Part shown: positions 8,704-58,309 of the stretch, piece by piece
How positions within the stretch are numbered: position 1 is the stretch's first letter
How the letters are laid out: the number at the start of each line of letters is the position of its first letter
Origin: a virus
Lineage: Duplodnaviria > Caudoviricetes
IMG/VR virus record: IMGVR_UViG_3300035497_000162
Location: 32,001 to 96,000 of that record
Direction: 5' to 3' (one strand)
DNA length: 64,000 nt
The notes under the pieces: model-generated
Database searches by the model: none
Told to the model about the DNA's origin: nothing
What the model saw: only the letters and a program-made list of their open reading frames with translations
Program-made: the position numbers and the translations under genes

Positions 8704-8732
8704 TTTACATTTTTAACAATATATAATATAAT
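8704..8732 (+). promoter_or_regulatory. sigma-A promoter for guide cassette 1 and the nuclease
   Basis: TTTACA (8704-8709), 17 bp, TATAAT (8727-8732). Confidence 0.7.
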
Positions 8733-8745
8733 TAAATATAATATT

Positions 8746-8848
8746 GAGGTAGTTTATACCTTTTAAGTACATCATTACTCATATAGAGCTTAGATGTAAA
8801 ATAACATAGTAATAAAACAACGGCTTAAAAGTTTAGAACTATACTAGA
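8746..8848 (+). ncRNA. guide cassette 1: scaffold fused to repeat 3' half (anti-repeat deleted) plus guide
   Basis: GAGGTAGTTTATACCTTTTAAGTACATC...GATGTAAAATAACATAGTAATAAAAC ends at 8818, followed by unique sequence. Confidence 0.75.
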
Positions 8849-8881
8849 TAACGTAATATTATTAGAATGTGAGGTACGATT

Positions 8882-10126
8882 ATGAAATTAGTACATAAAA
8901 AACTATTAGCTTATAAAGTTAGACTATATCCTAATAAAGAGCAAAGAGAATTTATTAATGGTCAATTAGAAACTTGTAGAATATGCTATAATGAAATGCT
9001 TAATAAATATAATGAAGATTATAAAGCATTTAAAGAAGGATTAATTGACGAAAAACCTAACTTAAATTTTAAATATGGCTGGATAAAAGAAAAATATCCT
9101 TGGATGAAAAAATATAATAGCTCACCATTAGATTTTACAGCTAGAAATTTACAAGAGGCTTTTATTAAATATTATGATAATTTTAACCCAAAAGATCCTA
9201 GCTTAGGTAAACCTCAATTTAAAAAGAAGTATAAATTAAATTCTTTTAAATTAAAAAAGGTTCAATTAAAAAATCTAGAGCTTAATTCTTTTGAAATTTC
9301 TAAGTTAAAAAATAAAATAAAATTTATAAATCATAGAAATTTTGATATTTCTAATACTAATAGTATATCTATTATAAAATCTAAATCAGATAAATATTTC
9401 GCAGTATTTTATTTGGAACAAGATTTATTCCCTAAGCTAGATTGTGAACCTAATAACAAAACTATAGCTATAGATTTAGGCGTTAGAAAATATTTTACTT
9501 GGATAGATTCTGAAGGAAACCAAGGTATTATTGAAAATCCTAAAGCTTATAAAGATGAAATGAAACGTATTATATTTTTAGATAAAGTACTAAAACGTAA
9601 AAAGAACGCACACAATAAAAGATATAATTTAAATCATAACGATGGACATATTGAAGAAATACATAAATACTCTAATAGGTACCAAAGAGTTAGAATACAA
9701 AGAGCTAAACATTATGAACATTTAGCTAATATTAGAACCAATTTCTTAAATAACCTTACTACTAAACTAGTAAAAGAATATAATAAAATTATAATAGAAG
9801 ATTGTAGAGTTACTGAACTAATAGATAAAACTACTAAAGAATTTAAGAATAAATCTAGACAAGCTAGAAAGAATATACATAAAGCTCAATATGATGTTGG
9901 TTGGTATAACTTTAGATTAATGCTAGAATATAAATGTAAACTTAATAATAGAGAATTAATAATAGCTGATGAATTTTATAGGTCTACTCAAGAATGTAGT
10001 AATTGTGGTTATATTAATAAAGAGCTAGAAGATGTTAATATTAGAGAATGGACTTGTCCTGAATGTAACACTTATCATGATAGAGATATAAATGCTTGTG
10101 AAAATTTAATGAAAAGATATAATTAA
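8882..10126 (+). CDS. tnpB: TnpB/Cas12f-like RNA-guided nuclease, 414 aa, catalytic residues intact
   Basis: N-terminal AYKVRLYPNKEQ HTH; RuvC-I IAIDLG; RuvC-II IIIED; Zn finger CSNC/CPEC; RuvC-III DRDINA; no tnpA nearby. Confidence 0.93.
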   Translation: MKLVHKKLLAYKVRLYPNKEQREFINGQLETCRICYNEMLNKYNEDYKAFKEGLIDEKPNLNFKYGWIKEKYPWMKKYNSSPLDFTARNLQEAFIKYYDNFNPKDPSLGKPQFKKKYKLNSFKLKKVQLKNLELNSFEISKLKNKIKFINHRNFDISNTNSISIIKSKSDKYFAVFYLEQDLFPKLDCEPNNKTIAIDLGVRKYFTWIDSEGNQGIIENPKAYKDEMKRIIFLDKVLKRKKNAHNKRYNLNHNDGHIEEIHKYSNRYQRVRIQRAKHYEHLANIRTNFLNNLTTKLVKEYNKIIIEDCRVTELIDKTTKEFKNKSRQARKNIHKAQYDVGWYNFRLMLEYKCKLNNRELIIADEFYRSTQECSNCGYINKELEDVNIREWTCPECNTYHDRDINACENLMKRYN

Positions 10127-10136
10127 ATATAATATT

Positions 10137-10280
10137 GAGGTAGTTTATACCTTTTAAGTACATCATTACTTTTAATGGAGTTTAGGTGTAAAATTATGTT
10201 ATTATATAACATAGTAATAAAACGTGGCAAGTACTATCGTATTTCAGGTATTTATTTTATATATAACATAGTAATAAAAC
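10137..10280 (+). CRISPR. guide cassette 2: sgRNA-like fused scaffold, 30-nt spacer, shortened repeat
   Basis: Anti-repeat and repeat joined as hairpin TTATGTTAT-TAT-ATAACATAG; spacer 10224-10253; 27-nt repeat 10254-10280. Confidence 0.85.
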
Positions 10281-10327
10281 TAATCATCTTTTCTATATTG
10301 CATATTATATAATAAGAGGTGTAATAT

Positions 10328-10999
10328 ATGTTAAACATAATAAATCATAGTGTTAGAACAAATGATATAGGATTAATTCAATTTATGTACCCTAGTTACA
10401 TTATAATAGATAAACCACCAATTTATTCTGATAAACCTATATTATTTGTTGGAGAAACTAAATATGTTAATAAGATTAAAGAGCTAAATGTTAATTACAT
10501 TATAGTATCTCAAGTAGGAGAAATAGATCTTACAGATAGATTAACTTTATTACAAGTAGCTTTTAGTAAATATAATAAGAATATACCTAAATATTTATTA
10601 TCTTTTTATAACGATTTAGATGATAATACTTTTATGGAATTATTTAAACAGTATTGGATTACTGGAAAGTGGAATCTTAAATCGTATGATAATACTGGTG
10701 CTTTTTTAGAGTTCCTTTATAGTTTTAAGACAGATACTTTCACTATGGCTAAAACTTACTTAGAATTGTTAAATAAAGTAGGTGCTGAATATATAGAAAT
10801 GAGCTTACTTACATTTTTAAATAGAGTAGTAAATACAAGCGGTAATCTATCTAAATGGTACATGAAACTTATAAATGATTATAAATATAGTAAATATAAC
10901 TTAATAGAACCAGCTTTAGAAAAATATATGTCTACTAAAGTATATAATTCAGAGCTTAGAATTTTTAATTTAATACTAGACTTAAATAGGAGAACTTAA
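10328..10999 (+). CDS. hypothetical protein (possible clamp-loader subunit)
   Basis: 223 aa with RBS; function inferred only from context. Confidence 0.6.
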   Translation: MLNIINHSVRTNDIGLIQFMYPSYIIIDKPPIYSDKPILFVGETKYVNKIKELNVNYIIVSQVGEIDLTDRLTLLQVAFSKYNKNIPKYLLSFYNDLDDNTFMELFKQYWITGKWNLKSYDNTGAFLEFLYSFKTDTFTMAKTYLELLNKVGAEYIEMSLLTFLNRVVNTSGNLSKWYMKLINDYKYSKYNLIEPALEKYMSTKVYNSELRIFNLILDLNRRT

Positions 11000-57041: not shown

Positions 57042-57051
57042 TATTTTATAT

Positions 57052-57082
57052 AAAGGAGATAGATTAAGTTCTATCTCTTTTA
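57052..57082 (+). terminator. intrinsic terminator after the MCP gene
   Basis: AGGAGATAGA/TCTATCTCTT stem plus T-run. Confidence 0.7.
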
Positions 57083-57090
57083 TTATTCTG

Positions 57091-57119
57091 TTTACTTTTT
57101 ACATATAGTATGTTATAAT
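57091..57119 (+). promoter_or_regulatory. sigma-A promoter for the cargo gene and cassette 7
   Basis: TTTACT-17 bp-TATAAT with extended TG. Confidence 0.65.
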
Positions 57120-57143
57120 TATATAATAAGAGGTGATAGAACT

Positions 57144-57980
57144 ATGCTTGAAAATAAAAGTAGGAAGATTTTAAAAATAGATAAAACACTACCAACTATA
57201 AAGTTACCAGGTAATAAATTACAAATGTTTATTGACTGGTGGAATGAAGATATAAGGTTTGAAAAATCTATACCTCATTCATTTAATGAAGGGTATTTAG
57301 TAATTAGTGGATTAAATAATAATATAAGTTTATCTAGTAAAGAAACTAAAGAAACTATTAGTATTATAGCTAAATCTATGAAAACTACATACAGATATGT
57401 TGAGAATAAGTTTATTGAATTTTTAGATAATATAAGTAATGTAACTATATATTTTAAATTTTTAGATACTAATAAACTATATTTAGAAAGCTATGATATA
57501 TTAAATACATTAATATCAAAGATGACTATTGAATTTGGTGATAGTAAACAATATGAAGATGAACTACTTTTATTTAAAAACATGAATAATTTTGATGATT
57601 TTCTTAATGTTATTAATAAGTCATTATTAGCATTATTAGCTACAAGTTTATGGTATATATCTACAGCTTCTACTAATACTAAATATATTTACGAAAAGAG
57701 TACTCCACAAATATATAAAGATAAAAATACTGTAAAAGTTAAAGTGAATAAAATAATTAAGAATACTATTTATGACTTTAATAAAATTAGATATATTAAA
57801 GTAGATACTCTTAAAACTAGAAAAAGAGGTTGGACTTATTCACATAGTTTTCAAGTACATGGTCATTATAGACATTATAAGAATGGAAAAACTATATTCA
57901 TAGATTCGTATATTAAGGGAAAGAACAAAGAATTTAAAGCACAGACTTTTGAATTAAATCCAGAAAAGATAAAAGATTAA
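57144..57980 (+). CDS. hypothetical protein directly upstream of cassette 7
   Basis: C-terminal FQVHGHYRHYKNGKTIFI..YIKG motif. Confidence 0.75.
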   Translation: MLENKSRKILKIDKTLPTIKLPGNKLQMFIDWWNEDIRFEKSIPHSFNEGYLVISGLNNNISLSSKETKETISIIAKSMKTTYRYVENKFIEFLDNISNVTIYFKFLDTNKLYLESYDILNTLISKMTIEFGDSKQYEDELLLFKNMNNFDDFLNVINKSLLALLATSLWYISTASTNTKYIYEKSTPQIYKDKNTVKVKVNKIIKNTIYDFNKIRYIKVDTLKTRKRGWTYSHSFQVHGHYRHYKNGKTIFIDSYIKGKNKEFKAQTFELNPEKIKD

Positions 57981-57990
57981 ATATAATATT

Positions 57991-58309
57991 GAGGTAGTTT
58001 ATACCTTTAAAGTACATCGTTACTCATATAGAGTTTAGGTGTAAAGTTATGTTATTTGAAGTTTTATATGTATATAAAATAACATAGTAATAAAACAGGG
58101 CTTCAATTAAAACACTATTTAACGTTTTATATGTATATAAAATAACATAGTAATAAAACACAAAAGCTGCTATAAAGACACTATTTAACGTTTTATATGT
58201 ATACTAAATAACATAGTAATAAAACATTTAGTAAGAGATTTACACTCTTTCTTTTGTTTTACACATATATAAAATAACATAGTAATAAAACAATAGCATA
58301 CAAGTAAGT
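57991..58309 (+). CRISPR. guide cassette 7: scaffold, 4 repeats, 3 spacers, terminal guide
   Basis: Repeats at 58061, 58124, 58190, 58256; spacers of 27, 30 and 30 nt; terminator about 58315-58345. Confidence 0.93.

Follow-up and report, generated by a model that had tools for sequence, protein, structure and literature searches.

The locus described here raises the question of what a phage does with a single TnpB-type nuclease and many scattered copies of a short scaffold, each followed by CRISPR repeats. We analyzed a window of 64,000 nucleotides (positions 32,001 to 96,000 of IMG/VR record IMGVR_UViG_3300035497_000162) together with the rest of the 119,730-bp phage genome to which it belongs. 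The original prediction was of a domesticated TnpB-to-Cas12 intermediate, serving competition between phages or allele-specific homing. Our reading, drawn from sequence comparison, is that of a phage-borne system of the TranC type with dispersed guide modules, which would be used against related phages; we give it a probability of roughly 0.7.

The nuclease and its nearest relatives

The genome encodes one intact TnpB-type nuclease of 414 aa. Neither a Y1 transposase (TnpA) nor a second TnpB nor Cas1 was found in the whole 119.7 kb, so that the predicted intact nuclease lacking a transposase is confirmed and the absence of cas1, first stated for the window, extends to the entire genome. The Pfam domains of the protein are HTH_OrfB_IS605, OrfB_IS605, and Cas12f1-like_TNB, and it has the build of a TnpB, namely an HTH/WED-REC part, a split RuvC domain with its D-E-D residues, and a zinc-finger TNB within ~350–420 aa. 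Residues D198, E306, and D402 do not vary among relatives, nor do the four cysteines of the zinc finger. NCBIfam TnpB models score 207–240 bits (guided_TnpB 207 bits, cut-off 100), any Cas12 model at most 132 bits, and Cas12f HMMs, also below the TnpB models, at most 127 bits. The full-length alignment with ISDra2 TnpB (E 1e-32) leaves the D/E/D residues and the CxxC pairs intact. The predicted fold is nearest to 8h1j (TM 0.71/0.80), and the TnpB structures 8h1j and 8iaz rank ahead of LaTranC and of Cas12f (TM ~0.6). LaTranC (structures 9jfo/9jfq) matches the C-terminal 150 residues only (E 5e-16; TM 0.63/0.55). In sequence and predicted fold, the nuclease is nearest to the IS200/IS605 protein ISDra2 TnpB (PDB 8h1j, 8bf8), not to any Cas12 nor to LaTranC.

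Among 5.8 billion proteins only two are more than 50% identical to the nuclease, and together with the window protein they form a clade with 100% support. As to the placement proposed for checking, the profiles favor the TnpB family over Cas12. Both relatives (L008 and L009) have a homologous scaffold just after the nuclease stop, followed by 36-nt repeats, of which L008 has at least eight. The next-closest TnpB proteins (35–38% identity, ~357 aa) stand alone in phage contexts and none has an array nearby. The complete sister phage G001 has neither the nuclease nor the scaffolds.

Dispersed scaffold-plus-array modules

Ten copies of a ~70-nt scaffold, all on the plus strand, are present in the genome, seven within the window and three outside it, in addition to two decayed remnants (Table 1). 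Every copy is fused to 36-nt CRISPR repeats with one to four spacers. The 28-nt 5' part of the scaffold (expected occurrences, 0) begins each of the seven window cassettes exactly where it had been predicted, and the 3'-shortened form of copies 8746 and 10137 and the collapsed state of 29584 were equally borne out. Eight cassettes had been counted in the window; seven of these have scaffolds, the eighth (29584) is a decayed remnant, and the genome adds three full cassettes. The claimed recurrence of the repeat also stands, with nine copies at three or fewer mismatches, all on the plus strand, where shuffles expect 0; its 3' 20-mer occurs 14 times against 0.19 expected. Spacers do follow the repeats, at lengths of 23–31 nt rather than the 27–30 nt originally given.

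Table 1. Positions of the nuclease, the cassettes, adjoining tRNA genes, and own-genome spacer sites (window coordinates unless marked as genome).
Feature	Position	Strand	Parts	Evidence or remark
Own-genome site of spacer 45102–45131	1969..1998	+		28/30, mismatches at positions 13, 29; at start of ORF 1967–2257
Cassette, fully fused form	8746..8848	+	helices P1 and P2 joined straight to last 20 nt of repeat (8799–8818); guide from 8819	just upstream of nuclease gene
TnpB-type RNA-guided nuclease, TranC-like effector, 414 aa	8882..10126	+		Pfam, NCBIfam, alignment, predicted fold
Cassette, hairpin-collapsed form	10137..10310	+	scaffold, anti-repeat and repeat with 3-nt loop (to 10223), spacer 10224–10254, truncated repeat 10255–10280, terminal guide	starts 10 nt past nuclease stop; fold z = -2.97
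Decayed cassette remnant	29538..29610	+	~46-nt copy of 3' end of ORF 57144–57980, then (29584–29610) hairpin P1 joined to last 10 nt of repeat	19.8 bits
Own-genome site of spacer 39961–39990	39192..39221	+		28/30, mismatches at guide positions 2, 3; inside ORF 38640–39812, ~660 bp upstream of cassette 39855
Cassette, split form	39855..40015	+	scaffold and anti-repeat 39855–39924, repeat 39925–39960, spacer 39961–39990, truncated repeat 39991–40015	repeat, scaffold, and fold evidence
tRNA-Thr	43589..43661	+		ends 6 nt before scaffold 43668
Cassette between two tRNA genes	43668..43802	+	scaffold 43668–43737, repeat 43738–43773, 29-nt spacer 43774–43802	repeat, scaffold, and tRNA evidence
tRNA-Gln	43803..43876			immediately 3' of cassette 43668
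Cassette	44573..44781	+	scaffold 44573–44644, repeat 44645–44680, spacer 44681–44707, repeat 44708–44743, 38-nt tRNA-like minihelix 44744–44781 at the end	repeat and scaffold evidence; spacer match in sister phage G001
tRNA-Cys	44789..44863	+		ends 3 nt before scaffold 44867
Cassette	44867..45167	+	scaffold 44867–44936; repeats 44937, 45003, 45066; degenerate repeat 45132; spacers 44973–45002, 45039–45065, 45102–45131	repeat and scaffold evidence
Cassette after gene next to major head protein gene	57991..58321	+	scaffold 57991–58060; repeats 58061, 58124, 58190, 58256; spacers 58097–58123, 58160–58189, 58226–58255; terminal guide from 58292	repeat and scaffold evidence; sister-phage locus comparison
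Three full cassettes outside window	genome 11860, 26137, 28871	+		whole-genome scan
Second decayed remnant	genome 27986			

Three fusion states occur side by side: a split form with anti-repeat and full repeat, a hairpin-collapsed form resembling a natural single guide, and a fully fused form. A conserved 17-nt block before cassette 10137 overlaps the nuclease stop codon. A conserved -10-like block precedes six cassettes, and it is only suggestive as a promoter element because the promoter and terminator scans of this AT-rich DNA gave no signal above shuffles.

Guide RNA and likeness to known systems

The scaffold is predicted to be an omega-RNA-like RNA of three helices, and its stems covary over four phage lineages. 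When the alignment of these four lineages was fitted to a model derived from three of the lineages, 97.4% of cells were paired and six of 14 pairs showed compensatory changes. The covariation score reached 0.396, while shuffles gave 0.200 (0/500 as high); slid-alignment controls scored far lower. At the 3' end of the covarying scaffold lies the anti-repeat, whose helix with the repeat is predicted for all lineages and is maintained with differing sequences in the window, in L008, and in sister phage G004. The tracr-like reading of the scaffold is supported, with pairing that covaries in a sister phage. In the two closest relatives the scaffold begins directly behind the nuclease stop, and its stems covary; on these grounds the sequences support the view that it behaves as the guide-RNA scaffold of this nuclease.

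TranC is a published class of transposon-CRISPR intermediates with biochemistry (Jin et al., Cell 2025, pmid 41027434, as summarized in PMC13565253). The likeness is close: a TnpB-derived, TnpB-sized effector adjoins a CRISPR array in both (here by the flanking cassettes in the window, and by the array after the gene in L008 and L009), the omega/reRNA is divided in function between a tracr-like and a cr-like part, and an adaptation module is lacking. At the level of sequence, the present system has such a split guide, consisting of a tracr-like scaffold with anti-repeat and a repeat-spacer crRNA. A phage-encoded member, CauTranC9, has already been described (bioRxiv 10.64898/2026.03.27.714800). 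TranC clade 9 reportedly has a mean of 414 aa, lacks the ISDra2 C-terminal tail, comes from a Caudoviricetes genome, and carries spacers against phages, a picture much like ours; the reported length and phage origin agree with our nuclease, whereas the repeats of CauTranC9 are given as 38 bp and ours are 36 bp. The predicted TnpB-to-Cas12 intermediate is thus supported by the sequences, but not as a new class, TranC having already been named and published.

The enzyme type, then, is already known; what appears new from the sequence is the dispersed, multiplied layout of the modules. Compared with TranC, the scaffold-plus-array module is here multiplied tenfold and spread over 120 kb, two modules sit tightly between tRNA genes, the junction of leader and repeat resembles that of type II-A, and split, hairpin-collapsed, and fused RNA forms coexist. 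We found no description of a scattered layout with one effector and many modules in the accessible literature. It is this organization, one effector gene with many autonomous scaffold-plus-array modules, some within a tRNA cluster, that gives the locus its interest. Moreover, fused and split guide forms coexist in its DNA, so that a single genome would display the fused, hairpin-linked, and split states that correspond to the steps from omega-RNA to tracrRNA plus crRNA in the TranC model.

In ISDra2 TnpB, too, the guide RNA gene starts at the nuclease gene's 3' end and the guide lies 3' of the scaffold, and the fused cassette 8746 is architecturally an omega-RNA. The present system differs from it in having no TnpA and no transposon ends, in guides that are CRISPR-like spacers bounded by repeats and not transposon-flank sequence, in a much shorter scaffold (~55–70 nt), and in a protein with internal insertions and no C-terminal tail. 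With Cas12f (type V-F) and V-U (Cas12n) it has in common a small effector with a RuvC domain, an anti-repeat at the 3' end of the tracrRNA, and a crRNA in which the repeat precedes the spacer. Cas12f systems are usually accompanied by cas1/cas2/cas4. In contrast to Cas12f/Cas12u, the nuclease here lacks the expanded REC/WED domains and is not accompanied by cas1, cas2, or cas4; these features, the HMM scores, and the TM value place it outside type V-F.

Could the arrays instead have been made for a host type II-A Cas9, either as mini-arrays borrowing that enzyme or as repeat decoys acting as an RNA anti-CRISPR, with the nearby TnpB incidental? The repeats are 36 nt with GTTTT...AAAAC ends, the spacers are mostly 30 nt, and Rfam CRISPR-DR22 gives a weak full-length match (20.7 bits, threshold 50). 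Directly before the first repeat stands ATTTGAG or a one-base variant of it, and ATTTGAG is the type II-A group-1 leader-repeat junction (PMC5382924). Five cassettes have the exact motif, while two further ones, together with L009 and L008, carry ATTTGAA, ATTTGAC, or ATTTGAT; the motif is also part of the anti-repeat. Known viral mini-arrays that take part in inter-virus conflict carry copies of host repeats and depend on the host's Cas proteins; anti-CRISPR RNAs made of a single repeat are known as well (PMC11656645). Our arrays resemble the mini-arrays in being short (one to four spacers), carried by a virus, and supplied with spacers from its close relatives, but this phage has its own effector and its own tracr-like scaffold. 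An anti-repeat at the 3' end of a covarying scaffold abutting the TnpB stop in three lineages is a type V/omega-RNA layout and not that of a type II tracrRNA, and in the fused single-guide forms the guide is 3' of the scaffold, as in TnpB. No host array with this repeat was found among 185,579 species-representative genomes, and IMG/VR, JGI metagenomes, and GTDB genomes yielded no further copies of the repeat. We therefore regard arrays made for a host Cas9 as very unlikely. The single genome match (L015, Prevotella) falls within a coding gene and is due to chance.

The type II-A-like junction raises the question of how arrays lacking cas1/cas2 gain spacers. A speculative answer, which we hold with low confidence, is that the modules are chimeric, with a TnpB omega-RNA scaffold welded to a type II-A-style leader-repeat junction. 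Host II-A adaptation would then load spacers for the phage nuclease to use, the newest spacer would always be a natural single guide, and the flanking tRNAs would provide RNase P/Z processing. If so, multiplying the modules would let the phage scale its guide supply in a manner peculiar to phages and independent of cas1/cas2.

Spacer targets and the probable role of the system

Only three of about 23 spacers could be traced, and they support the view that genes of this phage family are the targets. For two of them the phage's own genes hold sites that agree at 28/30 (Table 1), above the chance ceiling of 23–24/30, in agreement with the predicted near-self spacers; a search for relatives with the targeted gene 38640–39812 found nothing. 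For the third, 44681–44707, the match is to sister phage G001, in whose homologous gene 19/20 positions agree in frame; this phage's own allele has diverged. The proposed search of phage databases gave no match at useful stringency to cultured phages or IMG/VR; a protospacer search with two arrays against cultured phages returned noise only. Two further candidates, the portal gene as target of the 23-nt spacer of cassette genome 11860 (18/23) and a G002 match of spacer 44973 (24/30), were rejected because they lie at the noise ceiling. The 5' flanks of the three traceable targets have no clear common motif and hence give no TAM, and an NNAGAAW-type PAM fits their 3' flanks exactly only once.

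From the anatomy of the modules, their covariation and linkage to the nuclease, its intact catalytic site, and the origin of spacers in phage-family genes, we infer how the system might be transcribed and processed, recognize a TAM, cleave DNA, and serve the phage. One TnpB-derived, TnpB-sized nuclease would be served by ten guide modules transcribed from the coding strand. Each module comprises two covarying helices and then the anti-repeat, which is continued in cis by the first repeat of a mini-array with its one to four spacers. On this view the former omega-RNA now serves as a tracr-like scaffold pairing with the repeats of the arrays. The first spacer could act as a natural single guide, in the order scaffold, anti-repeat:repeat hairpin, 9-nt linker, and guide, and collapse or deletion of the hairpin in some modules would yield omega-RNA-like single guides. 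For later repeats, scaffold RNA transcribed from any of the modules may be the pairing partner in trans; that the anti-repeat can pair with its own first repeat within the molecule counts against such a supply. The flanking tRNAs possibly help in processing. The loaded nuclease would cut the DNA of co-infecting related phages, with the phage's own alleles spared through mismatches, although mismatches 13 and 29 at site 1969 might not protect against a TnpB-type seed, which counts against this explanation. Cutting would exclude rivals and, where the target adjoins a cassette, favor the phage's own alleles by recombinational copying. If active, the system would provide a nuclease of very small size (414 aa) whose guide, at ~75–105 nt, is compact, natural single-guide designs, and a tractable model for phage-versus-phage RNA-guided conflict.

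The normal role of TnpB is transposon retention. The cassettes might accordingly be mainly selfish, TnpB-dependent homing elements, whose guides cut the cassette-free or variant allele of a co-infecting relative so that recombinational repair copies the cassette with nearby markers, an extension of that role, and not primarily means of defense or exclusion. Spacer 39961 targets a variant allele of a gene close upstream of its own cassette, and the phage encodes a UvsX-like recombinase. In remnant 29584, ~46 nt stem from the flank upstream of cassette 57991; therefore a cassette was copied together with its flank. Whether relatives lack a cassette at the same locus has a divided answer: the site equivalent to 57991, after the head-adjacent gene, is empty in L016 and is occupied by a diverged cassette in G004, a 16%-complete fragment. 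However, the guide at the end of the G004 cassette has no match in the empty L016 site, site 1969 lies ~43 kb from the cassette 44867 that holds its spacer, and the own allele of the third target is ~47 kb from cassette 44573, though ~1 kb downstream of cassette genome 28871. Nor does homing need multi-spacer arrays. On this balance homing as the main role is unlikely. Of the two predicted roles, competition between phages agrees with traceable spacers that hit phage-family genes, whereas allele-specific homing fits just one of the three, the one with its target next to the cassette; judged from these matches, exclusion of related phages in general has the better support.

TldR and Cas12m proteins bind and silence promoters, and the guides could in the same manner direct a regulatory rather than destructive protein. 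The first 16 nt of the cassette 8746 guide are identical to two spacers in L008, where they occur as short spacers of 17–18 nt, even though the two nucleases are only 54% identical. Guides that are both short and conserved typify autoregulatory CRISPR-like RNAs, according to one report (bioRxiv 10.1101/2023.03.03.530964). The conserved guide has no target in this or the sister genomes; 28 matches in IMG/VR were judged to be chance, none extending past 16 nt and all in unrelated, GC-diverse contigs. A regulatory role is highly improbable in view of the three intact and invariant RuvC acids and zinc finger, and the remaining spacers are variable and derived from phage genes.

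TnpB-type nuclease and its cassettes

The window (bases 32001-96000) lies in one 119,730-bp contig from an IMG/VR virus record, with a CheckV completeness of 94%, whose genes for a portal protein, major head protein, UvsX-like recombinase and DNA methyltransferases identify it as a phage genome. The nuclease has all three TnpB domains and scores 207–240 bits with the NCBIfam TnpB models and at most 132 bits on every PADLOC Cas12 model. ISDra2 TnpB aligns with it end to end (E 1e-32), and the match to LaTranC, a published nuclease of the transposon-CRISPR intermediates (TranC), is confined to the last 150 residues. 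Across 40 relatives, residues D198, E306 and D402 and the CxxC...CxxC zinc finger do not vary. The structure was predicted confidently (pLDDT 88.7); the structures nearest to the predicted fold are TnpB 8h1j and 8iaz (TM 0.71/0.80), which rank ahead of LaTranC, Fanzor2 and Cas12f. No second TnpB, Y1 transposase or Cas1 was found in the 119,730-bp genome. The domains, profile scores and missing Y1 transposase agree with the original prediction of a TnpB-family nuclease without transposase, and the absence of cas1, claimed for the window, extends to the whole genome.

Each locus consists of a scaffold of ~70 nt, then the repeat, then spacers. Within the window the 36-nt repeat occurs nine times at three or fewer mismatches, on the + strand only, its 3' 20-mer 14 times, and the 28-nt 5' part of the scaffold at seven sites, all at positions given beforehand; shuffles contain essentially none of the three. 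These counts and the reading of the loci confirm the predicted scaffold-repeat-spacer anatomy and the seven scaffold positions. Scanning the whole genome added three full cassettes and a second remnant, for a total of 10 cassettes and 2 remnants, every one on the + strand; those inside the window are all intergenic.

Only two proteins among 5.8 billion, P0002 and P0003, exceed 50% identity to the nuclease. The three form a long-stemmed clade with 100% support inside solo TnpBs, many of them phage-borne. The contigs of both relatives carry a homologous scaffold just past the nuclease stop codon, followed by 36-nt repeats. One contig (L008) shares synteny with the window and carries one array with at least 8 repeats; the other (L009) breaks off within the first repeat. 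Cassette 10137 likewise starts 10 nt past the nuclease stop codon, which is overlapped by a conserved 17-nt block preceding the cassette. Because the same block stands at four other cassettes, its sequence suggests that these four are duplicates of the native nuclease 3' locus. Just downstream of the nuclease locus, L008 has a SpoVS-like gene (precomputed Pfam PF04232 match), with a syntenic ORF in the window; this gene and the 26% GC content hint at a spore-forming Bacillota host.

Coordinates of the nuclease, cassettes and related features (window positions unless stated otherwise)
Feature	Position	Remark
Nuclease ORF	8882-10126 (+)	414 aa
Cassettes, window	8746, 10137, 39855, 43668, 44573, 44867, 57991	scaffold starts
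Cassettes, whole-genome scan	genome 11860, 26137, 28871	
Remnant 29584	29538-29610	
Second remnant	genome 27986	window -4014
Own-genome match of spacer 39961	39192-39221	28/30
Own-genome match of spacer 45102	1969-1998	28/30
Conserved 16-nt guide	8819-8834	
Same guide, L008	4429-4444, 4532-4547	
Neighbouring spacers, array 57991	58097-58123, 58160-58189	
SpoVS-like gene, L008	5408-5686	
ORF syntenic with SpoVS-like gene	11090-11371	93 aa
Gene before cassette 57991	57144-57980	278 aa
Cassette of sister phage G004	L022 10311-10580	IMGVR_UViG_3300001487_000382
Empty locus, sister sequence L016	5540-5580	
tRNA-cassette interval	43589-44863	1.3 kb
tRNA-like minihelix	44744-44781	38 nt

Predicted guide RNA fold and fusion states

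All lineages share one predicted fold, comprising a hairpin P1, a helix P2 with an inner hairpin, a helix P3 in which the anti-repeat pairs with the 3' half of the repeat, a linker and the guide. The linker is ~9–11 nt long and ends in AAAAC. When the window, L008 and L009 were combined into a covariance model, it matched a diverged copy in the sister phage G004 with 38.8 bits. In the four-lineage alignment, with the caveat that this was fitted to the model, 97.4% of cells pair, compensatory changes occur in 6 of 14 pairs, and the covariation score is 0.396 vs 0.200 in shuffles (0/500 as high), with slid registers far lower. P3 still pairs although its letters differ between the window, L008 (anti-repeat of 24 nt) and G004. 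Neither the P1 loop (GUUUA) nor the linker end (AAAAC) varies in any lineage; by analogy with TnpB/Cas12f RNAs, the two could form a pseudoknot beside the guide.

The cassettes exist in three states. In seven, the anti-repeat is directly followed by a full repeat (split form). In cassette 10137 and that at genome 28871, a 3-nt loop joins anti-repeat and repeat into a hairpin (predicted fold z = -2.97) that resembles an engineered single guide. P3 is absent from cassette 8746, which lies a short way upstream of the nuclease gene; its scaffold continues directly into the final 20 nt of the repeat and then the guide, the layout of an omega-RNA. Both remnants consist of hairpin P1 and the last 6–10 nt of the repeat, with a shared break point. 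Remnant 29584 also includes ~46 nt copied from the 3' end of the ORF preceding cassette 57991, which indicates that this cassette was once copied along with its upstream flank.

Spacers and the resemblance to type II-A arrays

All spacers were scanned without gaps against the own genome and the sister genomes, with a chance ceiling of 23–24/30, and three stood out. Spacer 39961 matches the gene immediately upstream of the cassette that holds it, and its mismatches, at guide positions 2 and 3, alter one codon; those of spacer 45102 are at positions 13 and 29. These two bear out the claim that spacers nearly match the phage's own genes. Spacer 44681 matches the homologous gene of the sister phage G001 in frame (19/20), the own allele being much more diverged. 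Judged from these sequence matches, variant alleles of this phage family's genes are the source of the traceable spacers.

A 16-nt guide is identical in the window and L008, whose nucleases are only 54% identical. The window has it in the single-guide cassette that precedes the nuclease, and in L008 it forms two short spacers (17–18 nt) at the decayed distal array end; no target for it was found in the phage genomes compared. Two neighbouring spacers of array 57991 have their last 12 nt in common, which suggests that the array was partly duplicated or recombined internally.

Five cassettes have ATTTGAG directly before the first repeat and two have ATTTGAA; at that place L009 has ATTTGAC and L008 ATTTGAT. 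ATTTGAG/GTTT is the group-1 junction of type II-A systems, and in Streptococcus thermophilus the last 10 leader nt plus one repeat are enough for adaptation (PMC5382924). The motif might then be a type II-A leader-anchoring site, as its fit to that junction, the 36-nt repeats, the mostly 30-nt spacers, the distal position of the most degenerate repeats and a weak full-length match of the repeat to Rfam CRISPR-DR22 would favor. However, the motif also belongs to the anti-repeat, so that its conservation may have another cause, an NNAGAAW-like PAM fits exactly in the 3' flank of only one of the three targets, and genome searches found no host array with this repeat.

Known systems, sister phages and tRNA genes

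Taken as a whole, the original prediction, a domesticated intermediate between TnpB and Cas12 served by scattered scaffold and mini-array cassettes, is supported at the sequence level. As relayed from Jin et al. 2025 in PMC13565253, a TranC system combines a TnpB-like effector with an array and has its transposon RNA divided into tracrRNA and crRNA; IS605 and IS607 TnpBs gave rise to such systems several times. CauTranC9, described in a 2026 preprint, is a phage-encoded TranC; its clade has a mean length of 414 aa, no ISDra2 tail, 38-bp repeats and spacers against phages (bioRxiv 10.64898/2026.03.27.714800). Viral mini-arrays targeting related viruses are also known (PMC11656645). Since TranC has already been published, the system in the window is, on its sequence features, a variant of that known kind, not a kind of its own. 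Our literature search found no multiplied and dispersed scaffold-plus-array modules, no coexisting fusion states and no interleaving of such modules with tRNA genes.

In the sister phages the major head protein is ~80% and the DNA ~72% identical to that of the window phage. G001, which is complete with terminal repeats, has neither nuclease nor scaffold. The locus of cassette 57991 is empty in L016 and occupied by a cassette in G004 (contig L022, a 20-kb fragment). The G004 cassette is diverged and keeps the three-helix plan; its repeat and anti-repeat differ in letters from those of the window and retain their pairing. The gene before cassette 57991 matches only PHROG 10678 (unknown function) and no Pfam family. 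It is present in G004, L016 and L018 and absent from G001–G003, and is thus a variable gene adjoining a variable cassette locus.

Elsewhere in the window, tRNA genes and cassettes alternate. The tRNA-Thr gene is followed after 6 nt by a scaffold, and no base separates the 29-nt spacer of that cassette from the start of tRNA-Gln; tRNA-Cys is separated from the next scaffold by 3 nt. From this arrangement we infer that tRNAs and cassettes would be co-transcribed, with ends defined by RNase P and RNase Z. Directly past the second repeat of cassette 44573, in the place expected for a spacer, lies a tRNA-like minihelix (4-bp acceptor stem and T arm), which could represent either a tRNA gene cut short or a signal for processing.
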